Shown piece after piece: positions 17,735 to 51,685 of a stretch of DNA of 64,000 bases. A program made the position numbers and the translations under genes. Numbering within the stretch: position 1 is the first letter of the stretch; each line of letters opens with the position of its first letter. The DNA is from an uncultured bacterium (lineage in GTDB: Bacteria; Patescibacteriota; Kazan-3B-28): positions 413,456-477,455 of the forward strand of contig OY968788.1 of NCBI GenBank assembly GCA_963695435.1, in the 5' to 3' direction. The notes beneath the pieces are model-generated. The model saw only the letters and a program-made list of their open reading frames with translations. It was not told where the DNA came from and ran no database searches.

Positions 17735-17758
17735 TTACTTTACTTAGGAATAGTGGAT

Positions 17759-17788: not shown

Positions 17789-17826
17789 TTTGTACCGATA
17801 AATTAGTCTTATGGTAATCTAATACT

Positions 17827-19395: not shown

Positions 19396-19472
19396 CTGAC
19401 AGATATGTAAAGAATAAACTCACCTGTTGGCGAGATACTTTATCCTAGAGAAAAGTCACGAATTAGCATAAA

Positions 19473-20912: not shown

Positions 20913-20914
20913 GT

Positions 20915-23900: not shown

Positions 23901-24115
23901 CAAGTGATACTTACACGATTTGGTCAGGAACTTACACTAATGTATCCGAAACAAACGCCACCGAATCGCTGGACGCTTCTCGAACAGTTGGCATACGAAG
24001 CAGTGGAACAGGGGGTGATTCTACCGAAGTGCGACCTAGCATTCAATTGGTGATTCCGCCCAGCCAGACACCAGCCTCAGATTATGCTGGCTCAATCCGA
24101 TTTACTGTCATATAG
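20915..24115 (+). CDS. Giant secreted protein: signal peptide, two tandem 440-aa beta-propeller-like units (W-N-G-S-x-W blades), C-terminal WxL-like domain.
   Basis: Internal 1320-bp tandem duplication (21051..22370 and 22371..23690). Each unit has 7-8 blade-like subrepeats (YxxWNGSxW with DGxxxxxVY). C-terminus has GAGWTLSA (WxL) and ends YAGSIRFTVI, like the two small WxL-like proteins. Confidence 0.6.
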   Translation: MRCLMVTRHRITTQRAIPPSSIWWLTVLVLVSLFCDLPMAGAVTNDAMMVYDTQTITSTPKYQRWNGSWGGEASANTTTGEIRYMELKFSPVADQAILVTQGSSGVLEAQVWTGGGTNSWGAITIIGTVGAGTLEGAGINDGEQFRCWDIEYEQVSGDAVIVYQDGTADPDYKVYSSGAWSVSGSDINILTTGAPAWIELASSPGEDYLAMISIDVTIDVYGMRWNGSAWDDMNSGGAEAIWDTGGSIYYRKSIDVAFETNSADILFMWYDATQDVQNYRRYTQGTTTLETLQTLSMTNQAGLGQWVQLAADPTAGSDKIMYVEQDAQLDIWSAYWDGSAWTAETVAHDATVEIVTNMNFDVAWETYTGHTGHCWIVYGDGAGTSSRHWNGSSWDSVSTTPTSDDDTGHVRVAVQPNDGTLFAMSYETTGSASDNIEVSSNASGSSTWGAQSEIWAGPTVTDTATVALGGTFRMAIAAEIYSSSTDAMMVYDTQTITSTPKYQRWNGSWGGEASANTTTGEIRYMELKFSPVADQAILVTQGSSGVLEAQVWTGGGTNSWGAITIIGTVGAGTLEGAGINNGEQFRCWDIEYEQVSGDAVIVYQDGTADPDYKVYSSGAWSVSGSDINILTTGAPAWIELASSPGEDYLAMIVLDQNTDVYGMRWNGSGWDDMNSGGDEAVWDTAAALYYRKCIDVAFETNSNDILFMWYDGVQDVQNYRRYTHGTTTLETLQTLSMTNQAGLGQWVQLAADPTAGSDKIMYVEQDAQLDIWSAYWDGSAWTAETVAHDATVEIVTNMNFDVAWETYTGHTGHCWIVYGDGAGTSSRHWNGSSWDSVSTTPTSDDDTGHVRVAVQPNDGTLFAMSYETTGSASDNIEVSSNASGSSTWGAQSEIWAGPTVTDTATVTLGGTFRMAIAAEIAESATLGITAPTDVTLTTGNPGTTVDTTFGTGEKVTLTDGGAGWTLSARMLATLTSGSYTIPNTNVYLRKDGNVGSSDTYTIWSGTYTNVSETNATESLDASRTVGIRSSGTGGDSTEVRPSIQLVIPPSQTPASDYAGSIRFTVI
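21051..23690 (+). repeat. Two-copy 1320-bp in-frame tandem duplication inside the giant surface gene.
   Basis: Flanks of the units are nearly identical at the nucleotide level. A central stretch of roughly 220 bp (21551..21770 versus 22871..23090) is diverged at both synonymous and nonsynonymous sites. Confidence 0.9.
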
Positions 24116-24153
24116 ACTGGCTTTAGATTCCTTCTGGAAGGTATAATTGGAAT

Positions 24154-25281
24154 ATGCGATTTACCTCTGACCTGATAATTAGCGCTTTGGCCGTATTATT
24201 ACTACTGGCTGGCGCTTTGTGGTTGCCGTTAGTCGGGGCTAGTACTGGAAATATGGGGATGTCTCTGGCTGTTGTTGAAGAGGACGACGGTGGCGGCGGA
24301 AGTGGTGGCGGAGGTGGTGGAAATCCAAATCAACCGTCCACACCAGTTATCCCTGTTGTGCCTGTTGTACCCGTACCGCCGAAAGAGTTTAGATTGGTGG
24401 ATTATGTGCCCAAAGTTATACCTGCATATCGCGATACGCCAATCGTTCTGTACGGCTACAATTTCCCTTCAGATTTCAAAATTGTGGTGAAAGCCAGAGA
24501 TGCAATGTTGGTGGCAGATAGCGCTATGGTGAATAAGAAAACTGTCATAATAGAGGGGGCTGTATTAGAGGCCGTACAATATGTTGTTCCCGCAAAAACA
24601 CTAACGCCGGGTGAGGCGGTGTTGCTGATTCAGGAAGCCGACAAGGCGTTAACTTCTCCGTTACCGATATTAGTGTACGATTCTGTCAAAAGAATAAATT
24701 TGCGGGCGCAGATCGCCGAGCGAACAATTAATATAATTGTTGCTAGTGGTCAGTCAGCCAATGTCACCGTCAAATTTAAAAACATTGGGCTGACCGAATG
24801 GGACTATTTGCTCCAGCCGTTACATATCGGTACCAATAGCCCTCATGATCGGCAATCCCGATTTATTCACAAAGATTGGCCCTATAACAATCGGGTGGTA
24901 AAAGTAAGTTTGCCGCCGGATGTAAAGACGGGCGAAACATTTGATGCCACCTTTCCCATCCAAGCCCCCGTGGTAAAACGAACTACTCGTTACACCGAGA
25001 ACTTTGCACTGGTAGCAGAGGGCATCGCTTGGATTCCCGGTTCTAACTTTACCGTCCGGATTACCGTTTCCGCACCGGTGGCGGAGAAGATAGTAAAAGC
25101 GACTACCCAAAAAACTACGCCGGTACCCGCTGTCAAAAAGCCCGCTGCCCCCTACAAAATTCCTAATACCATACCAGCAACTGCTGTTAAGAGTGGTAGT
25201 TGGTTGAGCGGGATAAAATCATTCCTTGCGCAAGCACTTGGTCTTGTGGGAACATTAGCCAGTAATTTACTCCCTAAATAA
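24154..25281 (+). CDS. Secreted, C-terminally anchored hypothetical protein with Gly-rich and Pro-rich linker.
   Basis: Signal peptide. Linker GGGGSGGGGGGNPNQPSTPVIPVVPVVPVPP. C-terminal hydrophobic segment. Directly follows the giant surface gene. Confidence 0.45.
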   Translation: MRFTSDLIISALAVLLLLAGALWLPLVGASTGNMGMSLAVVEEDDGGGGSGGGGGGNPNQPSTPVIPVVPVVPVPPKEFRLVDYVPKVIPAYRDTPIVLYGYNFPSDFKIVVKARDAMLVADSAMVNKKTVIIEGAVLEAVQYVVPAKTLTPGEAVLLIQEADKALTSPLPILVYDSVKRINLRAQIAERTINIIVASGQSANVTVKFKNIGLTEWDYLLQPLHIGTNSPHDRQSRFIHKDWPYNNRVVKVSLPPDVKTGETFDATFPIQAPVVKRTTRYTENFALVAEGIAWIPGSNFTVRITVSAPVAEKIVKATTQKTTPVPAVKKPAAPYKIPNTIPATAVKSGSWLSGIKSFLAQALGLVGTLASNLLPK

Positions 25282-26306
25282 TGTTTCGAAATATGAAAGG
25301 GGTTAATTGGAGTATATTTTTGCTGGTGGCGGCCGTCTTTGTCGGCGCCGGACTTTGGTATGCGGCTGTCAGACCGGGGTTGGAAGAAAATGGCGTTCTG
25401 CCTACTGGTGATTCTAGTATCACGGTGATTGCTGGCGGAGATGTGAATCTGGGGCGACAGACCGGACAGAAAATTTTGGCTGGTGATATCAATTACCCAT
25501 TTGCGAATATGGGTGATACTTTGAAAAATGCTGATGTGGCATTTGTGAATTTGGAAAGTCAGCTGGCTGATTTGGGCGATGAAACTCAATCCCCCACTTC
25601 CGAATACCGCTTTGCCGGTCCGCCAGAAGGAGCGCAAAGTTTAGCAAACGCAGGAATTGATGTTGTATCTCTTGCCAACAATCATATGTGGGATTACGGC
25701 AAAGCGCGGCTGGAAGAAACCATAAGTGCGTTGACCGCTATGAACATTAAATATGTCGGTGCCAATATGGACACAGAAAAAGTTTGGGAACCTGTAATTA
25801 CCGAAGTAAAAGGCAAAAAAATCGCATGGCTGGCAATGACCAACTTGTTGAACGGATACGAAAACGCTGGTGCAAGTAAATATGTCGCGTTTCAGGATGG
25901 CGCAAAGCTAATTGAAGAAATAGGAAAAATAAAAGACAGTGTCGATTGGGTTTTTGTTTCACTGCATAGCGGAGCGGAATATGCTGAAAATCCAAGCTCG
26001 GCGTTGGAAACAATGGCACACGATTTGGTTGATGCAGGTGCAGATGCAGTGTTGGCGGGGCACCCGCATGTACCGCAAAAGATTGAGGTTTATAACGAAA
26101 AACCAATTTTCTATTCCCTCGGTAATTTTGCTTTCTGGCAACCGTTTTCTTTTTGGACACAAAATAGCTTTCTCGCCAAATTAAAACTTACCGAACCACA
26201 CAAAGTGGCGTATGAAGTTATTCCCATTGCCGCCGGCTGGCAACCCTCGCTCCTCACGGATAGTGATGCCATTGCCCAACTAATGGAAAGGATTGTGCCA
26301 CAATGA
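25281..26306 (+). CDS. CapA/PgsA-family metallophosphatase (poly-gamma-glutamate capsule synthesis-type).
   Basis: N-terminal signal anchor. Metallophosphoesterase motifs (GDVNLGRQ, ANNHMWDYG, GHPHVPQ). Membrane-anchored with an extracytoplasmic domain. Confidence 0.7.
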   Translation: MFRNMKGVNWSIFLLVAAVFVGAGLWYAAVRPGLEENGVLPTGDSSITVIAGGDVNLGRQTGQKILAGDINYPFANMGDTLKNADVAFVNLESQLADLGDETQSPTSEYRFAGPPEGAQSLANAGIDVVSLANNHMWDYGKARLEETISALTAMNIKYVGANMDTEKVWEPVITEVKGKKIAWLAMTNLLNGYENAGASKYVAFQDGAKLIEEIGKIKDSVDWVFVSLHSGAEYAENPSSALETMAHDLVDAGADAVLAGHPHVPQKIEVYNEKPIFYSLGNFAFWQPFSFWTQNSFLAKLKLTEPHKVAYEVIPIAAGWQPSLLTDSDAIAQLMERIVPQ

Positions 26307-26941
26307 ACATTCAAGAAATCCTAACTCAACGGCAAAAACTGTTGAAAAAAATACACCAGCTTGAGAAGATCGCGTTTTTTGATCAACTTACAGGTTTGCC
26401 CAATCGCCATGCCTTGGCAGCTGACCTCGTAAAACTCCCTCACGGTCGGACCAAAAGAAGGGGTCGGTTCTTGGGGGTACTTCTGCTTGATATTGACTGG
26501 TTCAAGCCTATCAACGATAAATTCGGGCATCTTACTGGTGACAAAGTACTAAAAAAAGCGGCCAAAATTATTGATGACAGTACTCGAAAAACATTGTTTC
26601 GTTCTGGCGACAAAGTCTACCGCTTTGGGGGCGAGGAGTTCGTGGTTATATTGCTCGGAGTTTCACTTAAGGGTATCTGGGTAATAGCTGAAAGAATTCG
26701 CAAAAATATCGCGAAAAATTTGGTAAAAGAATTTCCTGATATCAAGAAGGTAAGAAGTCGAATCACTATTTCTGTCGGGGGGAAAACCTACGATTTAATG
26801 GAGCTGCAGAAGCAAGCGCTAACCGTGGATCAACTGCAACAGCATCTCGTTGCTGAACCAGATGACTATTTGTACAAAGCTAAAAATTTGGGCAGAAATC
26901 GGATTGTCATAAACGGCAAAAGTTCCCGTCTGCCGTCTTAA
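26303..26941 (+). CDS. GGDEF-domain diguanylate cyclase with N-terminal coiled-coil.
   Basis: LTGLPNRHAL, LLDIDWFKPINDKFGH, RFGGEEFVVIL (GGEEF active-site motif). Confidence 0.8.
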   Translation: MNIQEILTQRQKLLKKIHQLEKIAFFDQLTGLPNRHALAADLVKLPHGRTKRRGRFLGVLLLDIDWFKPINDKFGHLTGDKVLKKAAKIIDDSTRKTLFRSGDKVYRFGGEEFVVILLGVSLKGIWVIAERIRKNIAKNLVKEFPDIKKVRSRITISVGGKTYDLMELQKQALTVDQLQQHLVAEPDDYLYKAKNLGRNRIVINGKSSRLPS

Positions 26942-30612: not shown

Positions 30613-30732
30613 ATTCCCGCGACGACCTACTTTGGCAGGACCTTGCGGTCCAACTATCATCGGCGCTGGGGAGCTTAACTTCTCTGTTCGGGATGGGAAG
30701 AGGTGTTGCCTCCCCGCTATCATCACGAGAAT
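30613..30732 (-). rRNA. rrf: 5S ribosomal RNA.
   Basis: Reverse complement contains CCGAAC...AGAAGTTAAGC...AGCGCCGATGATAGT at canonical 5S positions. Helix I pairs ATTCTCGTGA with TCGCGGGAAT. About 120 nt. Confidence 0.85.
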
Positions 30733-31477: not shown

Positions 31478-32236
31478 CACGCATGATTGTCCATTATTAC
31501 TAATGGCATAGACTATATCTTCATCCTTTCTGCCCACCGGCAGAGGAGGAGGTGGCGTGTGATAGCGATGATTAACTTTGCGCTATCTCATCAACCCATT
31601 TTGCTTTTAATGAATTGAATCAGTCGTTACGGGGAACGAGTTTATGTTCTTGCAGAAATTGTTTGACCGTTGCTTGTGTGGTCGTGCGTTTCTTGGAGTA
31701 ATTATACTTTGCGGTTTCGTCCACAAGCTTTGCTCTTTTAAGCAATTCTTGGGGCGAGATTCTTTCGTACGAAGAGCCAATTCCTAGCAAACATAAAGCA
31801 ATAACTTTTTGCGCTAGGACTTGTTTCAGCCGTAAATACGGAAGCAACTTGGTTAAAACTTCGTAGACCGGCTGATACCCGACAATCGTGTATTCAGCCA
31901 TATGGTCATTACGAATACGAACATACCCATACTTCAGTTGGCTTTTTAGCCATTCGAGAAAGTCTTTTCTTTCTTCTTTTTGATAAAAGACAATACTAAC
32001 TCGAATCTGATAACCATAGATATATCCGCTACGTTTCACTAGTTGCGCCATAATGCAACCATCTCCGTCTAAGAATCCCGCAATGTAAGCAAGTAATTTT
32101 TCTGCCATAATCTCGATCTTCCCTCGGAATTGCCCTCTTTTCGTTCGGTAAGAGAAAAGTAGGGTTTCTCCGATACAGCCACGTTTATTGTACCGCATTT
32201 CTGCGGTAGAACGCAATGTGATTTACGTTCTGAACC
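31478..32236 (-). mobile_element. Group I intron 1 in 23S (domain V, between GACCGAACTGTCTCACG and ACGTTCTGAACCCAGC) carrying a LAGLIDADG gene.
   Basis: Exon sequence is continuous across the insertion when compared with the 23S consensus. Contains a group-I S-like element (aagatatagtct in RNA sense) and the shared cagtcgttacgggg block. Confidence 0.75.
31620..32216 (-). CDS. LAGLIDADG homing endonuclease (intron-encoded).
   Basis: [19 protein letters not shown] motif, about 200-aa single-motif family. Embedded in 23S intron 1. Confidence 0.8.
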
Positions 32237-32247
32237 CAGCTCGCGTG

Positions 32248-32279
<32 letters not shown>

Positions 32280-32318
32280 AACCTGCTCCAGCTCCAGGAT
32301 GTGACGGGCCGACATCGT

Positions 32319-32608
32319 ACATAATTCCATAGTTTCATATGGTGTAGACTATATCTTCATCCTATCGCAAACCTTAGGTCTAATGGCCATAGTCTTGCTT
32401 TAATGTGATAGGAGGCGGCGTATTACCCTATTTTTGATAATAGAGTTTCCTCTTTCGAGTCAGTCGTTACGGGGTTAATTTTTGCATAGCAAAAATAACT
32501 TCCCACGGTATTGCCCTTCATCTTTTTTGTATACCACTGATGAGTAGGGTTTCACCGTTATAAGCCGCATTTTTGGTATGAGATTGCTCTCATAGCACCC
32601 CAATGTAT
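32319..32608 (-). mobile_element. Group I intron 2 in 23S (between GACATCG and AGGTGCCAAAC). No ORF.
   Basis: About 290-nt insertion. Shares agactatatcttcatc and cagtcgttacgggg blocks with introns 1 and 3. Confidence 0.65.
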
Positions 32609-32649
32609 TAAGGTGCCAAACCAGACCGTCGATATGGACTCTTGGGTCT

Positions 32650-32688
<39 letters not shown>

Positions 32689-33160
32689 GCTTCGGCGCAC
32701 CCATGTGCAACCGTCGGATCACTATATCCTGCTTTCGCATCTGCTTGACTTGTAGGTCTCGCAGTTAAGCTCCCATATACTATTGCGCTATCATCCCGAT
32801 TTCCATCCGGGATTAGGGAACCTTTGAACGCCTCCGTTACATTTTAGGAGGCAACCGCCCCAGTTAAACTACCCGCCAAACGCTGTTCTCCCACCAGATA
32901 ATGGTAAGGAGTTAGAATTAAAAATGTGCTAGGGTGGTATTTCACCGTTGACTCGCCGATGGCTAGCGCCACCGGGTCATAGTCTCCCACCTATCCTACA
33001 CAAACAAATTTCTAACCCAACGCCAGGCTGTAGTAAAGCTCCACGGGGTCTTTTTGTCTTGCTGCGGAAATCCGGCATCTTCACCGGCAATGTAGTTTCG
33101 CCGAGTCCCTCGTTGAGACAGTCTTCAGACCGTTATGCTATTCGTGCGGGTCGGAACTTC

Positions 33161-33506
<346 letters not shown>

Positions 33507-34376
33507 AGGGCTTAGATTCAAAGCTGCACCTTGCGGTTGACCTCTCCTCTTGACCTACTGGCACTGGGCAAGCATCAGTCCCTATACGTCATCTTTCGAT
33601 TTAGCAGAGACCTGAGTTTTTGTTAAACAGTCGCCTGAAGTCTTTAGCTGCGGCCTGTCTTGCGACAGGCAATCCTTATTCCAAAGTTACGGATGATTTT
33701 TTGCCGAGTTCCTTAACGAGGGTTCTCTCGTACGCCTGAGGCTACTCGCCCTATCCACCTGTGTCGGTTTCGGTACGGATGCTTTGAAGTCTCGCTAGAA
33801 GTTTTTCTTGTCAGTCTGGATCAATCGAATCGTCTCATCCCGAAGGAATCAACTTTCCCACAGCTTGGGTTCGGTCCGATAAATCGGACCAGTCTCCCGG
33901 ATTTGCCTAAGAGACACCTTAACTGCTTAGACTCGGAAACCTGTCCGAGCTCAACCTACCAGTCCGCGTCACTCCATTGCTAAACGCGCGAGCCAGCGAA
34001 ACCGACATTTACTTCACCTTGCGGCAAAGCAATCATTCGGCTCACCAATTCGCTTGTTTTGGTCGACTTCAACGCAGTACAGGAATATTAACCTGTTGTC
34101 CATCGCTTACGCCTTGCGGCCTCAGCTTAGGTCCGACTAACCCTGAGACGAAAACCGTTGCCCAGGAAACCTCGGATAAATCGGCGTCGAAGGTTTTCAC
34201 TTCGATCTCGCTACTCGTGCCAACATTCTCACTTCTATGCGCTCCACCCAACCTCACAGTTGAACTTCACTGCAGCATAGAACGCTCCCCTACCACTGCC
34301 ATCTTGCGATGACAATTCGTATCTTCGGTATCCAACTTAGCCCCGTTACATTTTCGGCGCAGACACACATCGACCA

Positions 34377-34433
<57 letters not shown>

Positions 34434-34929
34434 TAATGTGTCTCCACTTCCTTTCACACTTAGTTGGAATTAGGGACCTTAGATGACGATCTGGGCTGTT
34501 TCCCTTTTGATTTACGACGCTTAGCCGCCGTTTTCTGACTCCCAGGCTTTAACCGGTCAGTATTCGGAGTTTAATTGGACGTGGTACCTTGCGGCCCAAA
34601 TCCATTCAGTAGCTCTACCACTGCCGGGAACGCTCTGAGGCTATACCTAAATATATTTCGGGGAGAACCAGCTATCTCTGAGTTCGATTGGCATTTCACC
34701 TCTAACCACAGTTCATCCCCCCACTTTTCAACGTAGGTGGGTGCGGCCCTCCACTGCTTTTTACGGCAGCTTCGGCCTGACCATGGTTAGCTCACTCAGT
34801 TTCGGGTCTAATCCCTGCCACTTCAATCGCGCTATTCGCACTTGCTTTCGCTTCGGCTCCTCTGTCTAAACAGATTAGCCTTGCGGCAGAGATTAACTCG
34901 TTGGCTCATTCTACAAAAGGCACGCCGTC

Positions 34930-35207
34930 GCCCCGCCAATTTAAAGCTCGTATCTAGACGTTGTTTCAGTCTTGTCCACGTGGTTCCATAGTTCTTCAAC
35001 ACTAACTCGCGTTTGCGAGCAGCGTGAGGATCTTGATACGCCTCGTAATAGACAAGTTCATATGCACCACGTTTCTGATGTTCAGACAACCTGCGACGCA
35101 AATCGGGCGTTTGCCCGATGTACGGTTTTCCAGTGTCAGCATTTATCAGTACGTAAAGATAATGCATAAATTAATTATACGTCCATACCAACTCTAAATT
35201 GGCGGGG
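34930..35207 (-). mobile_element. Insertion in the 23S helix-25 region: a 19-bp-arm palindromic element (cccgccaatttaaagctcg/agctctaaattggcggg) carrying a GIY-YIG gene. Likely an RNase III-excised intervening sequence.
   Basis: The arms form a perfect extended stem replacing the helix-25 tip. An empty 48-bp copy of the same palindrome is at 35692..35739. Confidence 0.6.
34945..35167 (-). CDS. GIY-YIG nuclease (YhbQ-like) encoded inside the 23S helix-25 insertion.
   Basis: HYLYVLINADTGKPYIGQTPDLRRRLSEH. The ORF-track C-terminal extension (to 34832) is read-through into the palindrome arm and rRNA. Confidence 0.7.
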
Positions 35208-35265
35208 CTCCGACTCTTAAACGAACACACGGTTTCAGGTACTATTTCACTCCCCTCACAGGGGG

Positions 35266-35305
<40 letters not shown>

Positions 35306-35691
35306 GAGAAATGATATTTAGCCTTACCAGATGGTCCTGGCAGTTTCCGGCAGGATTTCACGGGTCCCACCGTACTTAAGAAAGAATATATCAGAGTGAT
35401 TTGCTTTTCGTTTACGGGACTTTCACCCTCTATGGTTACCCTTTCCAGGGACCTTCAACTAAGCAAACCATTTTTGACTCCTGAGTCGGTTCTACTGTCC
35501 GACAAAATATTCCCCTTGCAACCCTCTCCTACACAACGCCAGTAGGCTATAAGTGTAAGAAAGTTTAGGCTCTTCCCTTTTCGCTCGCCGCTACTAAGGG
35601 AATAAACATTTGTTCTATTTTCCTCGTGTTACTAAGATGTTTCAGTTCACACGGTTCCCTCCTCACTATCTATGTATTCAATAGTGGGTTC

Positions 35692-35739
35692 CCGCCAATT
35701 TAAAGCTCGTATAAAAACCAGCTCTAAATTGGCGGGAGG
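35692..35739. repeat. Empty copy of the 23S-embedded palindrome (cccgccaatttaaagctcg-tataaaaacc-agctctaaattggcggg) within 23S domain I.
   Basis: Replaces a short native hairpin. Both copies begin the loop with tat. Confidence 0.7.
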
Positions 35740-36298
35740 ATTACTCCATTCGGACATTCCCGGATCAGCGGGTGTTTGGCCCCTCCCCGAGACTTTTCGC
35801 AGCCTACTACGTCCTTCTTCGGTCATTTCTCCCAAGGCATCCACCGAGTGCTCTTATGTAGCTTGATCGCTTTTGTTTTCTTAATAAGGCTAGTGCCTTA
35901 TAACTTAAATCGGCGATTTAAGAAAACCATTGCTTTCATTTTTTCATTGATGCCCAAGTTGTCAATGAACCAAATTTCCAAAATCGTTACTGAAAAAACT
36001 CAAAAAAATAGCAGGGATCACCCTGCTTGTGCGAGAACCAATTTAGGTCCGCTTTATGCAGGCGTGAAAGTTAACAAATTCAAATCAGCCGTGTTGGTGT
36101 AACTGGAAAGACTAATATATATGTAGGTGTAACTCAAACGCTTAATTAGTGAGTGATATATAGCTGATATTCAGCTAGTTGGTATTCTATAATATATCCA
36201 AAATCAACGCAAGAGGTTTTCGCCATTTTGTGGGGCAAAAGTCAAGGCAAGGCCGATTTATATCTGGAAATAAGGTTAGACTGGTACAATAAACCCGT

Positions 36299-41039: not shown

Positions 41040-42526
<1,487 letters not shown>

Positions 42527-42606
42527 CATCTCCTTCTCATCATAAACTAAAAAGCTCTTAGGTTTATCCCTAAGAGTCATCTGCCAGCTAGTCTAGCTGG
42601 GTTTGG

Positions 42607-43608
42607 TTAGATTGCCAAGTTGGAAGTTGAGTCCGTAGTGTCTTCAACCTGCACAGACTTGCGAGTAGCAAGCTTGGTGTAGGTCAGACCAGCCATACCG
42701 AAGGCGGACATCGCCAGCCCTAGGAACGGTAACATTTCTGGTCCAGAGTGAGGCAACATATCGTAAGTGTAGCCTACGAAGGTTGCTTCCTCTCCGTCGT
42801 TACGGTGAACTTTGATTTGACGAGTGCTGGCTTCACTCAAGTCTGGTTCGGATTCAATATCAATAACGATTCGAGTGTCGCTCCAAGAAGTGATCACGGC
42901 AAGCTTGGTGCCGATATAAACTTTGGAATCAGCGCCCTCTACTCCGAAATTAGTACCGGTGATGGTGACTGATTGTGCTAAGTTCTTACTCCCGTGAGTC
43001 GGACTAATGCTAGTAATAGTTGGCGTAGTCGGAAGCACTTCGGCTTCGGCAACGGTGAAGGTTGCGCTAGAACCGGCACTCAAAATGTCAGTACTAGTGC
43101 TGCTGATTACATTGCTGTCAGTGGTTGCGCCAAGGCTGGTAAAACCTAGTGTCAAAGCTACAGTTGAATTAATCGGAGCCAATGTTTTGAAAGTGAGGGT
43201 GGCAACATTACCCGTCCCAGTTGGATAAGCGTTAGGAAGTGTACCTGGCTTTACCGAGTGACCAATATCAACTGTGCCAGCTAGTTTGTCAGTATCACGT
43301 GTAACGAAAGAGTCTTCGTGATTGACATCGCCTGGGGTCCAATAGAAATCATTTGTGGCAGGTCTGGTCGCGGAAACATATTCCAATTTTGCGGGATCAA
43401 AAGTGACTACTATATCGGCACCAGAAGTTCTGCTGGTACCATTGGTGTTGATTACTACATCAACTTTGAAGTTGGAATTGACTGCCACCGAACCGCTGGA
43501 CGGACTGAATGTCATGGTAGCAGGATGAGTATCATCGGCAAACGCAAAAGCCGGTAGAGCAGCTACCAGATAGATCGCCAGAATGCTGATTTTTGCGAAG
43601 TTTTTCAT
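42607..43608 (-). CDS. Membrane-anchored surface protein with cohesin-like N-domain and IPT/TIG domain.
   Basis: Signal peptide. Cohesin-like pattern NFKVDVVINTNGTSRTSGADIVVTFDPAKLEYVS...GNVATLTFKTLAPI. TIG-like ITSISPTHGSK...VTITGTNFG. C-terminal TM (GPEMLPFLGLAMSAFGMAGLTYTKLATRK). Confidence 0.5.
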   Translation of the reverse strand: MKNFAKISILAIYLVAALPAFAFADDTHPATMTFSPSSGSVAVNSNFKVDVVINTNGTSRTSGADIVVTFDPAKLEYVSATRPATNDFYWTPGDVNHEDSFVTRDTDKLAGTVDIGHSVKPGTLPNAYPTGTGNVATLTFKTLAPINSTVALTLGFTSLGATTDSNVISSTSTDILSAGSSATFTVAEAEVLPTTPTITSISPTHGSKNLAQSVTITGTNFGVEGADSKVYIGTKLAVITSWSDTRIVIDIESEPDLSEASTRQIKVHRNDGEEATFVGYTYDMLPHSGPEMLPFLGLAMSAFGMAGLTYTKLATRKSVQVEDTTDSTSNLAI

Positions 43609-43649
43609 TTTTATTTTTTGCCTGCCTTTGTTTTTATTATACTATACTT

Positions 43650-44825
43650 TTAGCTTTCTGTCAAGTCCCCTTGACCATATTGCTCAAGCAACACCTGCAT
43701 ATCCATCCCATTGACTTTGCCATCACCATTGAGATCGGCAGAGTTGCTGGAAGTGTTGCTCTGACCCGCCTCAAACGCGCCCAAAGGCACTGTTTGGGTA
43801 TCTTCGCCTGTTGCCTCAAAAGGCACTATGATCTCTCTCGTAGTCGGGCTGGTAACGACTATCGTGTAGGTGCCAGCTCGAAGCTTGAGTGGGATGACAT
43901 ATTCCCCACCGCTTGCGGATAGGTCAATTTTGTCTTTGTTGTAAATCGGGTTGAGCGCAAGGTCAGTGCAAAGCAGCTTGATGGTCGCATCACTAGGAAT
44001 ATTTTGCGTACCACCGCTAAACGATAGGGTGAGCGCAGAAGTTTCGCTGGTGGACAATACTGCATCAGACGAATCGGCTGCAGAAGTTTGACCATATTCG
44101 ATTATCCAACCGTAAACTGCTGGTCGGTCATCAACCGCAAATGTGCTGAAATCAATTTCCATTCTCAAATATTGTTTGACTGCCCTATCCAAAGTAATTG
44201 TGGCGGATTTAATATTTTCATTTGCTGGAACGGAGACGAAAGCGGGACTAGCCAAATCATGCAGTTCGCTAGTGTCAGATAGATCTTTCTCGTCAGCGGT
44301 GCGATAACCAAAATTAGCCATAGTGGTATCTGGCAAATAGGCGTAAACAGTGATTGAATTCACCAGCACGCCAGTTGTCCCTAAATTGACGGCAGGAGAA
44401 GTGTAGCGATGATTAGCGGAAGTGTCTTCTCCCTCTACCAGCGAAGATACCACCGGCATAACAAATCCTGCTTCGTCAGCCCCCGGAACCATAAAGTCCG
44501 GCTCACCGGCAAAATTGGAAAAGATGCCTGTCCCATCAAAAATAGCAGCGGGCCAATCTTTCGTTTCACCATTAGCAGTTTCAGCACCAGAGGGCACTAT
44601 CCAACTATCTGCTGTGGGGTTTCCTTCAAGATCTGGCAAACCTGCCAAAACATAAGTATTTTCGATGCCAGCCCTGGAACCAAAAATGCGAGACAGCACT
44701 TCGAAACCGCCGGCATAAATAAGAAAAGCCGCAACTGTGACCAGCACGATTACTATCAGCGCAATCGCCCGCCAGCTAATGTGGCGAAGATTATGTTCTG
44801 GAAGTTGATTGAGCAATTGTTCCAT
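43650..44825 (-). CDS. N-terminally anchored surface protein ending in a dockerin-like calcium-binding repeat.
   Basis: N-terminal TM. C-terminal DLNGDGKVNGMDMQVLLEQYG matches the DxNxDGxVNxxD dockerin/EF-hand loop. Confidence 0.5.
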   Translation of the reverse strand: MEQLLNQLPEHNLRHISWRAIALIVIVLVTVAAFLIYAGGFEVLSRIFGSRAGIENTYVLAGLPDLEGNPTADSWIVPSGAETANGETKDWPAAIFDGTGIFSNFAGEPDFMVPGADEAGFVMPVVSSLVEGEDTSANHRYTSPAVNLGTTGVLVNSITVYAYLPDTTMANFGYRTADEKDLSDTSELHDLASPAFVSVPANENIKSATITLDRAVKQYLRMEIDFSTFAVDDRPAVYGWIIEYGQTSAADSSDAVLSTSETSALTLSFSGGTQNIPSDATIKLLCTDLALNPIYNKDKIDLSASGGEYVIPLKLRAGTYTIVVTSPTTREIIVPFEATGEDTQTVPLGAFEAGQSNTSSNSADLNGDGKVNGMDMQVLLEQYGQGDLTES

Positions 44826-44830
44826 TTTGT

Positions 44831-47014
44831 TTAGCGGATTTCGTCTGGTAATTTAGTGCCCCACAAAGCAAAATTGTTAATTATCCAGTTGAGATCCGCC
44901 ATGTTCACCGTCCCATCGTTATTCAAATCACCTAACAAATTGGCAACTGTTTCACCATAGTGAGCAGCAATCGCATCGAAGTCGACCATATTGATTTTGT
45001 TGTCTACGGAAACATTACCGGCTTTGAGGATCGGGAAAGTAACGCCGTAAGCGTTGTTGTCGCCGTTGATAGTAAGAGTATCGGCAAATTTACTCCACAA
45101 GTGGCGATCGCTACGGACGAATACGGAGTAAGTGTCGGCAGGAATTTCAGTACGAGTAGCGGTAATAACCTTAGTGTATTGAGTTTCGTCAGCACTGATG
45201 GTGCCGTGAAAGTTAAGATTCTCGTAAACCTTAGCACCAGTAGTAGTGTTATATAACCTCAAAGTAAATAGTGGGTGTTCTGGGGCGGTAAAGTTGTCTG
45301 GAGAGGTTTCTTCTACTGGAATTGTGAGATTCAAAGTAACCGTGTCACTTTCGCCGAGAATAGTAAGCAAGGCGGTAGCAACGGGGCCGGCTTGGCCGAG
45401 GTCGACAATTGTGCCTGTTACGGTAAGGGTTTTTGCACTGGTTGCTGTTGCCATATCAGTTGCTGTAACAGTCAGTAGTGAAGTTTTGGTTAAAACTGGT
45501 CCGCCGGGGACAATTATCTCATCTGCCCTAAAAGTAATTGATGTTGGGTTAAAGTTGGCCGTTACGCCAGCACCGAAAACCGTAGCAATATCGCTAGACA
45601 AGGCAACTGTACCGGCAAAAGTAGAAACTCGAGTTACTGTGATGGTGTAAGTGGCTGGTGCATCATTTTTTACGACATTATTGGTTGCGGGAACTATCGA
45701 CAAAGTGACTGGCTGATTGGTTTGTGATTCAGATTGGTAATTTAGCGTTATGCTGGTAACAGAAGGCTCGTAGAGATTCAAATCAGTGGAAGACATTGCA
45801 ATGCGGAAGCGAGCTGAACTGATTTCAGCAAGTAAATCGTCATCTGGTAATGACGGGAGAATCGTCCCAGACGATTTCAGCAAGTCTTCACTATCTTCGA
45901 GAATCAAATAATAACCATCTGCACCAAAACCATTTATTGAACTATACACCGGAGTGATACCATCGGCTTTAAATAAACCAATGGAAAATTTAATATTGGA
46001 TCCTGTTGGCTGATCATATTCCGCGGTAAGCGAATTTATGGATGCTACGGGAACTGTAGAAGCAATATTGAATTTTGGTGAGGTATAAACAATTGGAGCT
46101 GGGTCAGTACCGACAAGAAGAGGTGTCCCAATCATCGTGAATGCTGGTTGGAGATCTTCGGTAAAATCTTCATCGTTATCGAACCCCGCATAAAAATTAC
46201 TGGGGATACTTATTGCTTTGGGATACAGATAAAAGCGTGTCTTATAACCAATTAAATCAGCTTTAGGGATGAGCGGGATGGAGTCTCCGTTGGGTCCGGC
46301 TTGGTAATATCCCAGTTTTTTATATGTGAAAAATCCATCTTCCATGTTGGGAAAATCGTCTGTCACTTTGTTATAAACCGGAGCACTGCCGTCTGTTTTC
46401 CAAGTCACTAAATATAAGTCGGCTTTGGCGGTTAGGTTGGTTTCCCAAGTAAGAGTAATGGGCAAACCGTATACCGGAGATTCCAAATAAGTGAGATCCT
46501 TATACAGCAATATCGCAAAGAGGTTGTCGAGAAAATCTGCCCCGACATTATTGCCGTCTGGCTGATTTAATTTCACCAAAATGCGACGGTCGTATGGGTT
46601 GGGGTCAGTCATTAAGCTCGCCCCATCTTCTGTTGGTATTGTCCAATTGTAGATACCAATCCCACTACCGCTACCCTCTGTTTCTGCTGGCAAAGCAGTC
46701 TTGATTATCGATGCGGTGTTACCAGTACCTTCTTGTCTTATCAGCCAAATATCTACAGTCCAGCCGGCGTAGCCTGTCTGCGAGGTTGCTAGTGACCAAC
46801 TAATCGGAACCGTATTCCCAACCAAAAATTTTTGCGAAGAAGCGTTCGAAGGAGAAGTGAGCGTAATTAAATCAGTAGCGGCTTGGGTAGTGCCCAGCGA
46901 ACCGTAAAGAGAATATCCTACGGCGATAGATATAAAACCCAGCGCTATTACTAATTGGAGGGCCCATGGGTGGCGATGAATTGCGGAATTAAATTTTTGT
47001 TTTATTCGTTTCAT
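44831..47014 (-). CDS. Large N-terminally anchored surface protein with C-terminal dockerin-like module (two repeats).
   Basis: N-terminal TM. C-terminus VDNKINMVDFDAIAAHYG + DLNNDGTVNMADLNWIINNF. Confidence 0.5.
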   Translation of the reverse strand: MKRIKQKFNSAIHRHPWALQLVIALGFISIAVGYSLYGSLGTTQAATDLITLTSPSNASSQKFLVGNTVPISWSLATSQTGYAGWTVDIWLIRQEGTGNTASIIKTALPAETEGSGSGIGIYNWTIPTEDGASLMTDPNPYDRRILVKLNQPDGNNVGADFLDNLFAILLYKDLTYLESPVYGLPITLTWETNLTAKADLYLVTWKTDGSAPVYNKVTDDFPNMEDGFFTYKKLGYYQAGPNGDSIPLIPKADLIGYKTRFYLYPKAISIPSNFYAGFDNDEDFTEDLQPAFTMIGTPLLVGTDPAPIVYTSPKFNIASTVPVASINSLTAEYDQPTGSNIKFSIGLFKADGITPVYSSINGFGADGYYLILEDSEDLLKSSGTILPSLPDDDLLAEISSARFRIAMSSTDLNLYEPSVTSITLNYQSESQTNQPVTLSIVPATNNVVKNDAPATYTITVTRVSTFAGTVALSSDIATVFGAGVTANFNPTSITFRADEIIVPGGPVLTKTSLLTVTATDMATATSAKTLTVTGTIVDLGQAGPVATALLTILGESDTVTLNLTIPVEETSPDNFTAPEHPLFTLRLYNTTTGAKVYENLNFHGTISADETQYTKVITATRTEIPADTYSVFVRSDRHLWSKFADTLTINGDNNAYGVTFPILKAGNVSVDNKINMVDFDAIAAHYGETVANLLGDLNNDGTVNMADLNWIINNFALWGTKLPDEIR

Positions 47015-47397
47015 TATTCCTGATCAAAATAGCTGTAATTCAACATCAATTTGCCGTCATTGGTGACGGTGAATGCCTCATTAACAGGTGAGGCAGACCA
47101 ACCAGAACCCATAAAGTTAGGAGTACTTGTATTGCTCAACGTTACTGATTCACCGGCCTTACTCCCCCGCAGATTCAAGAGCGTAGTCAAACGAGGACCG
47201 AATAAAATTGCTAACAGTACAACTACGACACCAGCGGAAATTAAACCAGCTCGCCAAAAATTGCGACGGGGTTTGATGGGGGTAGATTTGTTAGCTGTTT
47301 CCAGTTGAAGAACTGGAGTAGCTACTGGCAATTGGACTGGCTGATCCTCAAGAGGATCCGGTAACAGCGGAAGTGGATTTTCGTTTTGATTTGTCAT
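47014..47397 (-). CDS. Small membrane-anchored protein, co-operonic with the dockerin proteins.
   Basis: Start overlaps the upstream stop (ATGA). One TM. Confidence 0.4.
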   Translation of the reverse strand: MTNQNENPLPLLPDPLEDQPVQLPVATPVLQLETANKSTPIKPRRNFWRAGLISAGVVVVLLAILFGPRLTTLLNLRGSKAGESVTLSNTSTPNFMGSGWSASPVNEAFTVTNDGKLMLNYSYFDQE

Positions 47398-47403
47398 CGA
47401 GCT

Positions 47404-47601
47404 TTATAACTTAGATTCAAAGGTTTGTTCCATGGCCAAAACAGGCTTTTGGGTCAGCTGGTCAAGCTGATAAGAGATCTGATCATAAACAAACCAACCG
47501 GTTAGCATAGTCACGAGCATCAAAAACAAAGTCAGCTGACCATAGATAGGACTGGGTCGGCTGGGTTGTTCCCGTAAGCGTTGAGAGAGTCTCTCTAACA
47601 T
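47404..47601 (-). CDS. Small membrane protein (65 aa), first gene of the operon.
   Basis: ORF with one TM. 6-nt gap to the next gene. Confidence 0.35.
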   Translation of the reverse strand: MLERLSQRLREQPSRPSPIYGQLTLFLMLVTMLTGWFVYDQISYQLDQLTQKPVLAMEQTFESKL

Positions 47602-47995: not shown

Positions 47996-48241
47996 ATGAA
48001 AAAGGATACCCACCCAACTTATCACCCGAAAGCCAAAGTCACCTGTTCCTGCGGGAATGTGATGGAAGTTGGCTCGACGGCGGAAGATATGCGGACGGAC
48101 AGTTGTTCTGCCTGTCATCCTTTCTATACGGGCAAACAAAAGCAGATTGAGCGAGGCGGACGGATTGAACGATTCAAGGCAAAGGTGGAAAAAGCCGCCG
48201 GTGCCAAGAAAGTGGTCAAGAAACCCAAAAAGACAGTCTAA
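47996..48241 (+). CDS. rpmE: 50S ribosomal protein L31.
   Basis: [22 protein letters not shown]...CHPFYTG (zinc-ribbon L31 signature). Confidence 0.9.
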
Positions 48242-48292
48242 CAATTTTAGTAGTAACTACGGCTCTTCCTATATGGCAGGGCTGTTTTTGTG

Positions 48293-48436
48293 CCCAGTAG
48301 AGAATTTTAGATTTGATTATGCCGGTAATACTCGTCTCTAATCTGGCAATCGTACTCTAACTTGGTTAGTGCTGGTCGGAGTGCGTATTGAATAGCATAA
48401 TCAAAGAGTATTACCATCTAAAATCTTCTACCGGGT
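48293..48436. mobile_element. MITE-like element (family 3) between rpmE and prfA.
   Basis: TIRs cccagtagagaattttagat / atctaaaatcttctaccggg. Confidence 0.65.
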
Positions 48437-48458
48437 GTGTCAGAATAAGGATATCGTT

Positions 48459-49511
48459 ATGAAATTCGACCAATTCCAACAAGAATATGAAAAAATCCAG
48501 AGCCAGTTGGAGGATTTATCGAAACTGTCGCCAGTCGAGCAAGGAAAAATGTTCAAGCGACAAGGAGAATTGAAAGAAATTCTAAATATGGCAACTCGGG
48601 CAGAAAAAATTGAAGAAGAAGTTGCTGAACATAAACAGACTATCAAGGATGGTGGTGAATTATCAGAGTTGGCAACAGAGGAATTGCCGCGACTGGAAGC
48701 GGAATATCAACAACTTCAAGCCAAACTAGTTGAGACGACTATTCCAAAAGACCCGGCGGATGATGGAGATGCGATTGTGGAAATTCGCGCAGGTGCCGGG
48801 GGAGATGAAGCAGCGTTATTCGCGGGAGAATTGTTTAGAATGTACTCTCGATTTGCCGAAAAACAGGGTTGGAAAACAGAATTAATCGACAGTAGCGGAA
48901 GCGATGGTGACGGGTTCAAGGAAATAACTTTTCAGATCTTGGGGACGAGAGTATTCGGACAATTGAAATGGGAAAGTGGAGTGCATCGAGTTCAGCGAGT
49001 ACCGGTGACAGAAGCAAAGGGAAGAGTGCACACCTCTACTGCAACTGTTGCCGTATTGCCTGTAGCGGACGAATCTGAAATAGAAATCCGCCCCGAAGAT
49101 TTGCGAATTGATGTTTTTCGTTCGGGCGGACATGGTGGACAAAGCGTGAACACAACCGATTCCGCAGTGCGTATCACTCACCTACCGACTGGGCTGGTCG
49201 CTACTTGCCAAGATGAGAAATCGCAGACGAAAAATAAATTGAAAGCGATGGGTGTGCTTCGGGCAAGAATTTCTGATTTTGAGCGTGCCAAGAAACAGCA
49301 GGAACGGGGTGATACTCGTCGTCAGCAGATTGGTACTGGAGATAGGAGTGAAAAAATCCGAACCTATAATTTCCCGCAAGATAGAATCACCGACCACCGC
49401 ATAAATGAGAGTTGGCACAATATCGCGGGTATCTTGGAAGGTAATTTATCCCCTATCGTAGATACTTTGCGGGCTGAAGAAATTAAACGATTGACCGGCA
49501 ATGCCGACTAA
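48459..49511 (+). CDS. prfA: Peptide chain release factor 1.
   Basis: GGQ motif ([24 protein letters not shown]). Start at MKFDQ with AAGGA SD 8 nt upstream. Confidence 0.9.
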
Positions 49512-50328
49512 CCCATTGCGCGTAAGTGAGGCATTACGGTGGGGACAGCAACAATTGAAGATGGGCCGTACTGCCAATTTGGATGCGCGAGTTTTGCTGG
49601 CGGATGTTTTGGGTTATTCAACAACAGAATTGTTGAGTAATTTGCAAAGAACATTACCTGCTAGTATTCATAAAAAATATAAGTTGCTTATCAAACAACG
49701 GGTAAATGGTGTACCGGTGGCGTATTTGGTTGGAGAAAAAGAATTCGGCGATATAACTTTGAAAGTAAATCGTAATGTATTAATACCTCGCCCTGCTACC
49801 GAAGCAATAGTTGAAGAAGCAATAAAAACTGCAAAATTGCAGAAAGCAAAATCTATTTACGAAATTGGCACAGGCAGTGGAGTAATTGCTATTTCTATCG
49901 CCAAAAAACTTCCTAAAGTAAAAATAGTCGCTAGTGATATTTCCCCAAAAGCACTCCTTGTTGCTAAAGAAAATATTCGCCGATACAAGCTGAATGGACA
50001 AATCAAATTGGTGAAAAGTAATCTGGGAGAACATATCAAAAAACCTGCTTTGGTAGTGGCAAATCTACCGTATTTGCCAAACATTTTACGAAAGAAAAAT
50101 GAATTGAAATTCGAACCGAGCAAGGCACTCTTTGCTGGCGAAACTGGATTGGAATTGTATAAAAAAATGTTCGCCGATTTGTTATTCACCACGGCAATTA
50201 TCGAACTTGGAGCAAAACAATACCCACCGATAAATAAATGGCTAAAACAAAAATATCCCTGCGCTGATATTGTGCCTGTGCGGGATTTGGATAAAACAAT
50301 TTGTGGAATAAAAATAATTAAAAGTTAA
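49501..50328 (+). CDS. prmC: Release-factor glutamine N5-methyltransferase (HemK/PrmC).
   Basis: SAM motif [15 protein letters not shown] (NPPY-type) catalytic motif. Overlaps the prfA stop. Confidence 0.85.
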
Positions 50329-50996: not shown

Positions 50997-51071
50997 TGGT
51001 GCCCTCGGCAGGAATTGAACCTGCATTTAAGGCTTAGGAGTCCCTTGTTCTATCCGTTGAACTACGAGGGC
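50997..51071 (-). tRNA. tRNA-Arg (anticodon CCT) with encoded CCA.
   Basis: Acceptor GCCCTCG/CGAGGGC, D-stem GTTC/GAAC, anticodon loop CTCCTAA, T-loop TTCAATT. Confidence 0.7.
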
Positions 51072-51685
51072 ATACTCGTATATAAATTTTTTAAGGCTAT
51101 TATCTTTTTTAGTATAATACCTCCCTTACGGACTCTTACCCGGCACATTCCATAAGGAAGTTTTGCTATTTTTGACCCGCAAGAGTGTTCCACACTCACT
51201 TCATTGAGATTAAGTTTTTTACCTGTTATTTTTGACCAGAACCGTGCAGATGCATCTAAATCGAGACCTGGATATGTGCGCAAAGAGATTATTAGTTGTT
51301 CGTTTGAGATTCCAAAACACTTTCGTAAGAATACAAGAAATAACTTAATCATTTCAGCATCACTATTCATAAAACTCAAATCCTTCTTTGTACCCTCTGC
51401 CCAATACAAAGCAGTCCCTAACAACATCAATTCTGGTACGCCGATGGTTTTTGTATGTTGGTGGGCAAAATTTTTCGCTTCTATCCATTGCTTCTGAGAA
51501 GCTATCGTGCTGGTGTTCTGGCGAGCCTGCAGTCTGGCCTGATGTTGTGGTAAGACGGGAACAATTCGAACAAGTCTGTATACGGTAGAACGAGGCATTT
51601 TTGCGAGACGGCTAATCTCCGGGATGCTGTGTCCCGTACGTCTTAAATTGACGATACTCTCTTTGATCTGAGGAGAAAGCACCAT
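51062..51685 (-). CDS. HTH-domain protein with LAGLIDADG-like C-terminal domain (putative homing-endonuclease-derived).
   Basis: N-terminal HTH IPEISRLAKMPRSTVYRLV. LLGTALYWAEGTKKD resembles a LAGLIDADG motif. 3' end overlaps tRNA-Arg. Confidence 0.35.
   Translation of the reverse strand: MVLSPQIKESIVNLRRTGHSIPEISRLAKMPRSTVYRLVRIVPVLPQHQARLQARQNTSTIASQKQWIEAKNFAHQHTKTIGVPELMLLGTALYWAEGTKKDLSFMNSDAEMIKLFLVFLRKCFGISNEQLIISLRTYPGLDLDASARFWSKITGKKLNLNEVSVEHSCGSKIAKLPYGMCRVRVRKGGIILKKIIALKNLYTSMPS

Follow-up and report, generated by a model that had tools for sequence, protein, structure and literature searches.

A conserved Patescibacteria gene cluster encodes a cohesin and dockerin-type tails of a probable non-cellulosomal surface assembly

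Introduction

Most members of the candidate phyla radiation (CPR), or Patescibacteria, are epibionts that have not been cultured, and little is known of how they build their surfaces and attach to hosts. A cluster of five co-directional open reading frames (ORFs), g1-g5, raises this question in a defined and testable form. The cluster occupies positions 47601..42607 on the minus strand of a 64-kb stretch of Patescibacteria contig OY968788.1 (assembly GCA_963695435.1), referred to below as the window. An initial annotation of the window had read g5 as an anchored cohesin/TIG protein and its neighbors g3 and g4 as anchored proteins ending in dockerin repeats, together forming a cellulosome-style surface assembly. 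Are these cohesin and dockerin modules what they seem, do they belong together, and what would they assemble? Here, we report that g5 carries a cohesin, that g3 ends in an apparently complete dockerin and g4 in a single dockerin-type repeat, and that this gene set persists across deeply diverged Patescibacteria. We consider it probable that the anchored single-cohesin protein g5 holds the secreted, immunoglobulin (Ig)-like g3 and g4 in a non-cellulosomal surface assembly.

Results

g5 carries a cohesin on an exchangeable stalk

The 333-residue g5 protein (42607..43608, minus strand) consists, in order, of a signal peptide (MKNFAKISILAIYLVAALPAFAFA|DD), a β-sandwich (residues 28-188), an IPT/TIG domain (196-283), the motif LPHSGPE, a transmembrane helix (292-314), the basic stretch TRKS, and a short acidic tail. 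We assigned the β-sandwich (43045..43527, minus strand) to the cohesins by Pfam, by a family profile, and by Foldseek. Pfam Cohesin (PF00963) matched residues 37-170 with an E value of 5.2e-5 and 23.9 bits, the curated cut-off being 24.1. The same family was found in 13 of 15 g5 homologues (E<=0.01, best E 1.1e-7); several of them have a precomputed PF00963 match, and the orthologues from L049 (a related contig, as are the other L numbers below unless stated) and from the JGI 3300050046 contig match without a "weak" flag. At 14-21% sequence identity to known cohesins, the g5 family profile nevertheless matched the solved cohesins 5nrm_A and 5nrk_A (E ~2e-4).

We then compared a predicted structure with the Protein Data Bank (PDB). 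The AlphaFold2 model of g5 had a mean predicted local distance difference test score (pLDDT) of 79.7, with values >90 across most of both domains (most of residues 30-190), and showed the nine-stranded flattened β-sandwich, or jelly-roll, of ~140-150 residues that characterizes cohesins. Cohesins of types I, II, and III made up 49 of the first 50 Foldseek matches, the best being 6kgf_C (E 7e-11, target TM-score 0.79, root-mean-square deviation [rmsd] 2.8 Å). The model lay closer to type I cohesins (target TM-score 0.75-0.82, rmsd 2.6-3.0 Å) than to type II (0.56-0.65). The matches also included 2xdh (E 2.5e-7, target TM-score 0.76), the archaeal non-cellulosomal cohesin of Archaeoglobus fulgidus. 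Because the homologue matches, the family profile, and the AlphaFold2/Foldseek comparison agree, the doubt left by the sub-threshold Pfam score is removed, and the N-domain of g5 is a cohesin. The initial annotation had let its reading stand or fall with a cohesin profile match in this domain; Pfam, the family profile, and the predicted fold all return cohesin.

The TIG domain (42760..43023, minus strand), also named in that annotation, is secure: Pfam TIG (PF01833) scored 48.9 bits over residues 196-273 (E 6.4e-13; cut-off 20.9), and the model is confident there. It forms a stalk between the cohesin and the anchor. g5 relatives replace TIG with other Ig-like modules, CarboxypepD_reg, or a Pro/Thr linker (P0015, L049, and L051), and the cohesin and the anchor stay constant while the stalk changes.

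The C-terminal anchor of g5 resembles a sorting signal

The anchor region (42667..42756, minus strand) consists of LPHSGPE, a hydrophobic helix rich in small residues, and K/R residues. The AlphaFold2 model places a helix at residues 292-314, so the C-terminal transmembrane segment that had been annotated is present; the LPxTG-like motif before it makes a sortase-type sorting signal more probable than a simple transmembrane segment. Among close relatives, L285, P286, G289, P290, and E291 are invariant before the helix, and the helix itself conserves the small-residue, GxxxG-like pattern GLAMSAFGMAG. Distant relatives carry MPNTG-hydrophobic-RRRIKF or LSDTG-hydrophobic-KRKWF at their extreme C-termini, which reads as the classical layout of a sortase sorting signal. 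Across g5 relatives, the motif can be written as [LM]Px[TSN]G followed by a hydrophobic helix and K/R, and LPxNG also occurs. In g5 itself, a 19-residue tail (42610..42666) with the conserved end ..NLAI extends past the basic residues.

Sortases are encoded by Saccharibacteria, including an essential one in Southlakia (PMC10633639 supplement). Attachment of g5 to the wall by a sortase is likely, the alternative being a plain type I membrane anchor. We also considered a PEP-CTERM/exosortase-type signal, given the "GPE", transmembrane segment, and basic end of g5; this is less likely, as the distant orthologues with MPNTG or LSDTG lack the PE.

g3 ends in a two-repeat dockerin

g3 (44831..47014, minus strand) encodes an acidic (isoelectric point [pI] 4.5), Cys-free, Thr-rich, and β-rich protein of 727 residues. 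Its N-terminus is a signal or signal-anchor, and its C-terminal part consists of an Ig-like module followed by a dockerin. The end of g3 reads ...FPILKAGNVSVDNKINMVDFDAIAAHYGETVANLLGDLNNDGTVNMADLNWIINNFALWG..., and the dockerin module (44849..45037, minus strand; residues 660-722) contains two 12-residue loops, NVSVDNKINMVD (residues 667-678) and DLNNDGTVNMAD (residues 696-707), each followed by a helix-like segment. g3 thus has the two tandem segments of ~22 residues, each a Ca2+ loop plus a helix, that are typical of dockerins. At loop positions 1, 3, 5, 9, and 12, the second repeat reads D-N-D-N-D and the first N-S-D-N-D; in orthologues, the first repeat reads N/D-D-N-N-D. An Ig-like β-sandwich directly precedes the dockerin without a linker.

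The g3 sequence alone found nothing significant among PDB sequences, whereas a profile of seven orthologous g3 tails matched 5k39_B (E 7.6e-7) and 2b59_B (CipA; E 4e-6) with both repeats aligned, as well as 3kcp_A, 2y3n_B, 1daq_A, and many type I dockerins. Our own dockerin hidden Markov model (HMM) matched the g3-type proteins of L048-L051 with E values of 1e-11 to 1e-16. Dockerin_1 was the only Pfam family found in g3, and its relatives show sporadic Ig-like domains (TIG, Kre9_KNH, and Big_3). Judged from these profiles, the g3 tail reads as a genuine dockerin, nearest in sequence to type II X-dockerins.

g4 ends in a single, strongly conserved dockerin repeat

g4 (43650..44825, minus strand; 391 residues) is likewise acidic (pI 4.2) and combines an N-terminal transmembrane segment and FGSRAG motif with a β-rich central domain, an Ig-like module, and one dockerin repeat; both g3 and g4 are rich in Thr, Ser, and Ala and nearly free of Cys. 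The repeat (43668..43736, minus strand; residues 364-386; DLNGDGKVNGMDMQVLLEQYGQG) has its loop, DLNGDGKVNGMD, at residues 364-375, with D-N-D-N-D at positions 1, 3, 5, 9, and 12, and the single repeat at the end of g4 reads ADLNGDGKVNGMDMQVLLEQYG. The second segment expected of a dockerin is missing: g4 has one repeat, and the stretch upstream is degenerate. By hhalign, a C-terminal block of ~100 residues (Ig-like module plus dockerin) is homologous between g3 and g4 (probability 92%, E 5e-7); in it, the degenerate stretch of g4 sits opposite repeat 1 of g3. Their central domains aligned at E 6.6e-4, with a probability of just 27%.

Conservation within the g4 family is concentrated in this repeat. 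At E<=1e-10, a g4 profile run against 1.84 billion representative proteins picked up 37 clusters, of which ~30 are full-length; the weaker matches were multi-repeat dockerin proteins only, reached through that one segment. An alignment of 28 g4 members reaching down to 20% identity has nine invariant columns, and six of these (D364, N366, D368, G369, N372, and D375) fall inside the repeat. In searches of the PDB with the g4 family (A5) profile, all significant matches were dockerins (best 2y3n_B, E 1.4e-10). The sequence evidence therefore points to a strongly selected half-dockerin whose repeat is the most conserved part of its family.

The initial annotation had placed canonical dockerin loops at the ends of g3 and g4. 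All the loops were found at the predicted sites, with the correction that g4 carries one repeat rather than a full dockerin. The tails are also dockerin-type and not generic EF-hands, as indicated for g3 by the profile matches to 5k39_B and 2b59_B, and for g4 by Dockerin_1, which matched 8 of 8 orthologues (best E 4.4e-5), while EF-hand Pfam families appeared in 1 of 8, once each.

The AlphaFold2 model of g4, built from 8 sequences, had a pLDDT of 50.2, too poor to assign the central fold. We set aside its Foldseek matches (an endo-β-N-acetylglucosaminidase accessory domain, jelly-rolls of Eph-LBD, MAM, and carbohydrate-binding module [CBM] type, and Ig domains) on account of the poor model and query TM-scores <=0.22.

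The cluster does not encode a cellulosome

Searches with Pfam and PDB profiles found no glycoside hydrolase, carbohydrate esterase, polysaccharide lyase, CBM, or other enzyme domain in the g3 and g4 families, only dockerin and Ig-like domains, and the matches of these families to PDB sequences were confined to the dockerin. None of the five proteins showed an enzyme domain. With a single cohesin in g5, no CBM, and no dockerin-bearing enzymes, the cluster is not a cellulosome; of the "cellulosome-style" description, the assembly principle survives, and the enzymes and CBM do not. The composition of g3 and g4 suits structural or adhesive surface proteins.

Cohesin and dockerin genes stay together across related clusters

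We next asked how widely the gene set is kept. The g5 homologues come from Patescibacteria metagenome-assembled genomes (MAGs), and the closest matches in genome collections are labelled Candidatus Saccharibacteria or Patescibacteria group. We compared 13 related clusters, namely the contigs of seven g5 homologues and of six distant g4 homologues. A cohesin protein and a single-repeat g4-type protein occur together in all 13, and all 13 adjoin obg and/or rpmE-prfA, even as g4 identity between clusters drops to ~20-25%. The clusters also carry a large protein of 640-1400 residues, which has a two-repeat dockerin end wherever its C-terminus was read (a count made without the JGI 3300050046 contig and L054), and genes for small transmembrane proteins accompany them wherever the contig spans that end. 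The genes are not always in the same order: the cohesin gene leads in L049 and JGI 3300050046 and is last elsewhere, and g4 precedes g3 in L050. The persistence of the set through rearrangement and deep divergence is our main evidence that the cohesin and the dockerins are functionally linked.

In a six-frame scan of the window, the dockerin loop pattern and our own cohesin and dockerin HMMs matched only g3, g4, and g5, which argues that these signals are not background. In a genome scan with a narrower g5 alignment, only three Patescibacteria/Saccharibacteria MAGs yielded full-length relatives, the other matches being TIG-only; a metagenome scan with a g4 alignment returned just two loci, both already known.

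The cluster is flanked in the window by obg (41094..42440, minus strand) and by the divergent rpmE-prfA-prmC genes (47996..50328, plus strand). In the related genome L002, and also in L003, small ORFs for GIY-YIG nucleases lie between prfA and prmC and downstream of obg (L002:1697-1984 and L002:10966-11208); they are absent from those sites in the window, which suggests mobile insertions flanking a conserved cluster.

Two consensus promoters drive the five genes

The intergenic gaps from g1 to g5 are 6, -1, 5, and 41 nt, the g2 stop codon and the g3 start overlapping in TAATG. By a consensus scan, with both sequences verified, we located two sigma-70 promoters of the form TTGACA-17-TATAAT that match the consensus at 12 of 12 positions. 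P1 (47641..47669, minus strand), for g1-g4, lies 40 nt upstream of g1; P2 (43636..43664, minus strand), for g5, lies 28 nt upstream of g5 and overlaps the final codons and stop of g4. In 5 of 6 related loci, a perfect P1-type promoter precedes g1 by 55-68 nt, and L002, L004, L006, L007, and L008 retain P2, again with the full consensus, ahead of g5. Because the perfect consensus recurs at equivalent sites of related contigs, we regard P1 and P2 as real signals; the separate P2 therefore allows g5 to be transcribed alone as well as with g1-g4. A terminator-like hairpin with a T-run (42555..42576, minus strand) follows 31 nt past the g5 stop. The "minimal operon" of the initial annotation thus holds for the position and shared direction of its genes, and the unit is larger, comprising five genes and two promoters.

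The final codons of g4 (..D-L-T-E-S-stop = GACTTGACAGAAAGCTAA) supply the -35 box of P2. Distant g4 proteins lack the LTES tail, and there the promoter is retained just past the stop codon. In close relatives, what constrains the short LTES tail of g4 may thus be the promoter rather than the function of the protein.

g1, g2, and the export signals of the cluster

The two leading genes encode small proteins. g1 (47404..47601, minus strand; 65 residues) is a small single-pass membrane protein without a Pfam or NCBIfam match, and its orthologues are conserved at the head of the cluster in L001-L008. g2 (47014..47397, minus strand; 127 residues) is a single-pass membrane or secreted protein with a hydropathy peak at residues 46-76. 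The N-termini of g2 and g4 have a module in common, made up of a basic stretch, a transmembrane helix, and a juxtamembrane "..L.GSKAG" motif. A module of this kind, with "(F/L)G.(K/R)A(G/S)", an invariant Ala, and a short amphipathic helix, recurs on several otherwise unrelated proteins of the clusters (g2, g4, L048:198-518, L049:5259-5516, L050:6849-7148, and L051:3454-3768); it matched no Pfam or NCBIfam family and could be a dedicated processing or secretion signal. Type IV pilin-like class III signals in g1, g2, and g4 were rejected: a G|F(T/S)LxE motif ahead of the hydrophobic segment is lacking, and the motif that is conserved follows that segment.

The N-termini of g3 and g4 each have a basic stretch and one hydrophobic helix, and g3-type proteins have an AxA-like site within ~10 residues after the helix (TQA|A in g3). 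Read by eye, TQA|A in g3 and "..FGSKA|G" in g4 and g2 are candidate cleavage sites of secretion signals. The initial annotation called g3 and g4 anchored; the hydrophobic segment is there in each, and these N-terminal "anchors" may be cleaved secretion signals.

Other features of the window

A second, separate surface-protein cluster is the WxL region, in agreement with the initial annotation, which had kept the two systems apart. It contains paralogous proteins with WxL-interacting-protein peptidoglycan-binding (WxLIP_PGBD) and LysM domains at 274..1776 (minus strand) and 19473..20912 (plus strand), the second within a run (17108..25281, plus strand) of large ORFs without Pfam matches (208, 522, 1066, and 375 residues). 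At 25281..26941 (plus strand), a PGA_cap gene, of the poly-γ-glutamate capsule synthesis type, overlaps a stand-alone GGDEF diguanylate cyclase gene (212 residues) by 4 nt.

Two group I introns (33172..33460 and 32326..32620) split the 23S rRNA gene (32170..35868, minus strand), downstream of which lies a 5S rRNA gene (30614..30730, minus strand). Intron-bearing rRNA genes fit a CPR/Patescibacteria genome. No 16S rRNA gene was found anywhere in the window, so 16S and 23S are apparently unlinked. Among tRNA genes, a 207-residue ORF (51062..51685, minus strand) with an N-terminal helix-turn-helix-like sequence overlaps tRNA-Arg (50997..51071) at its 3' end and may be a mobile-element or homing-endonuclease-type gene.

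Discussion

A model for the assembly and the points against it

In the non-cellulosomal assembly that we favor, g5 would be exported through its classical signal peptide and anchored with its cohesin at the outer end of the TIG stalk, being either attached to peptidoglycan by a sortase or kept as a type I membrane protein. g3 and g4 would be secreted and then tethered non-covalently to the g5 cohesin through their C-terminal dockerins, probably in a Ca2+-dependent manner. With its separate strong promoter, g5 would provide single-cohesin anchors in sufficient number for the two ligands, and g1 and g2 would serve as small membrane or secreted accessory components. The assembled product would be a surface layer, a fibril, or an adhesin and not an enzyme complex, and its role in an epibiotic CPR cell is most likely host attachment or envelope architecture. 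The contact of g5 with g3 and g4 is one that we infer, with the support of the gene neighborhood.

Several observations weigh against this model. The HMM searches that the initial annotation had proposed fell below the curated cut-offs for all three proteins, and it was the family-level profiles that reached significance: the Cohesin score of g5 is 0.2 bits too low (23.9 against 24.1), and Dockerin_1 (PF00404) reached 21.8 bits in g4 (E 2.1e-4) and 16.9 bits in g3 (E 7.5e-3), the cut-off being 22.9. As to the anchor, the extended conserved tail of g5 looks atypical for a cleaved sorting signal, an NCBIfam search gave no sorting-signal family for g5, and neither a sortase gene nor a TLxTC motif was found in the 64-kb window. 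If the N-termini of g3 and g4 were not cleaved, both proteins would be tethered at both ends. Finally, there is one cohesin for two ligands, and in Clostridium thermocellum dockerins both segments are required for cohesin binding; by analogy, the single-repeat g4 may not bind g5 as a monomer.

We also considered a "split" dockerin, as part of a surface organelle, lineage-wide and highly expressed, in Saccharibacteria-like Patescibacteria: a host-attachment device or S-layer-like coat on a wall-anchored single cohesin. The lone repeat of g4 would pair with a second copy in a g4 homodimer, or with some other single repeat, and so restore a dockerin of two-fold symmetry that would then dock into the cohesin. 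We regard this as a speculative extension of the model and rather doubtful. If true, a split dockerin would be a new way of coupling oligomerization to cohesin docking and a handle on the surface organization of CPR epibionts.

Alternative explanations

The strongest alternative is that the domains are real and their partners lie elsewhere: the g5 cohesin would bind a dockerin encoded elsewhere in the ~560-kb genome or a host molecule, g3 and g4 would bind other cohesins or the host, and the neighbors would be merely co-regulated envelope genes. Our inspection covered 64 kb of that genome, within which no further cohesin or dockerin was found. The ratio of one cohesin to two different types of dockerin is awkward, the half-dockerin of g4 may require another partner, and the essential dockerin-bearing SEML1_0315 of Southlakia stands alone, with no cohesin annotated in the tables of PMC10633639. 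Against this stands the conserved set itself: the cohesin and the single-repeat protein remain together in 13 of 13 clusters despite rearrangement and deep divergence, with a two-repeat dockerin wherever the large protein was read, a pattern not easily accounted for unless they are directly linked in function. On balance, we find partners elsewhere unlikely.

Less plausible still is a membrane-embedded complex held together by the transmembrane helices and the "..FGSKAG" module, in which the dockerin-like repeats would be Ca2+-stabilizing loops and the cohesin-like domain a generic spacer. Such a complex would account for the exactly one hydrophobic helix in each of the five proteins, for the N-terminal module with an invariant Ala common to g1, g2, and g4, and for the conserved GxxxG-like helix of g5, and it would sit easily with the sub-threshold Pfam scores. 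It fits poorly with a g4 family whose conservation peaks in the dockerin repeat and not in the transmembrane region, and with a g3 tail that aligns to solved dockerins, not EF-hand proteins, over both repeats and their helices. A generic spacer would also not be expected to match cohesins specifically, rather than other β-sandwiches, nor to be kept while the stalk is swapped. We consider this explanation improbable.

A sortase-assembled pilus or fimbria, with g5 as the pilin subunit and g3 and g4 as tip or accessory adhesins, could draw on the LPxTG-like signal of g5 and on extracellular parts that are all Ig-like or β-sandwich modules, but we give it hardly any credence, as no sortase gene lies beside the cluster in the window or in the related clusters, g3 and g4 end in dockerin repeats without a C-terminal sorting signal, and the g5 fold is that of a cohesin and not of a CnaB/CnaA pilin.

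Significance

Returning to the cohesin-dockerin assembly, its vertical conservation beside housekeeping genes and its consensus-strength promoters suggest an abundant structure of the core envelope rather than an accessory trait. In Southlakia, the one Saccharibacterium amenable to genetics, a dockerin-bearing Ig-repeat protein has already proved essential (PMC10633639). The cluster is a clean natural case of the cohesin-dockerin assembly principle with non-enzymatic cargo, and g4 defines a family in which a single dockerin repeat alone is under strong selection. The cohesin-dockerin pair could also serve as an orthogonal affinity tag.

Comparison with known systems

Single-cohesin anchoring scaffoldins include ScaE of Ruminococcus flavefaciens, which is anchored by sortase through LPXTG, and OlpA/OlpC and SdbA of C. 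thermocellum, which are anchored by S-layer homology (SLH) modules; PDB entries 3ul4, 4dh2, and 5lxv were among the Foldseek matches of g5 (target TM-score 0.67-0.80). Like these proteins, g5 appears to be secreted, with one distal cohesin, a C-terminal envelope anchor, and dockerin-bearing partners encoded nearby, and it shares an LPxTG-like anchor with ScaE. Unlike the partners of anchoring scaffoldins, g3 and g4 lack any glycoside hydrolase, CBM, or additional cohesin; the g5 motif is LPx[N/S/T]G, followed in the lineage of the window by the extended conserved tail; and the host is a Patescibacteria bacterium instead of a Firmicute.

A second likeness is to the type II X-module-dockerin dyads (CipA XDocII, 2b59/3kcp; 5k39/5m0y), which gave the best matches of the g3 tail (E 7.6e-7 to 1.3e-5). 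As in those dyads, a β-sandwich, in g3 an Ig-like one, abuts the dockerin without a linker, a likeness of position. Unlike in the type II dyads, the presumed partner cohesin, that in g5, is structurally nearer to compact type I cohesins (target TM-score ~0.8) than to type II.

Non-cellulosomal modules form a third point of comparison. A 2009 survey by Peer et al. in FEMS Microbiol Lett reportedly catalogued cohesin- and dockerin-like modules of this kind across bacteria and archaea. Such modules are found in organisms that lack cellulosomes, and the g1-g5 cohesin and dockerins likewise reside on proteins unrelated to cellulose degradation. They differ from the catalogued modules in forming a syntenic, deeply conserved five-gene cluster with obg/rpmE-prfA neighbors and its own strong promoters, and in including a dedicated family of single-repeat dockerin proteins.

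Closest in cargo is SEML1_0315 of Southlakia epibionticum, a Saccharibacteria envelope protein of ~927 residues with Ig-like domains and a dockerin, which was reported as essential (Wang et al., 2023, Cell, PMC10633639) and for which a role in host adhesion was speculated (PMC10633639). Compared by description only, g3 is the same kind of cargo. SEML1_0315 is flanked by an α/β hydrolase gene and tRNA-Glu, and the obg neighbor in Southlakia is a LysM/CHAP protein (PMC10633639); g3, in contrast, lies in a cluster beside obg/rpmE-prfA together with a cohesin gene. Our literature searches returned no description of a cohesin, or of such a cluster, in Patescibacteria/Saccharibacteria. Overall, g1-g5 belongs with the known non-cellulosomal kind of cohesin-dockerin system.

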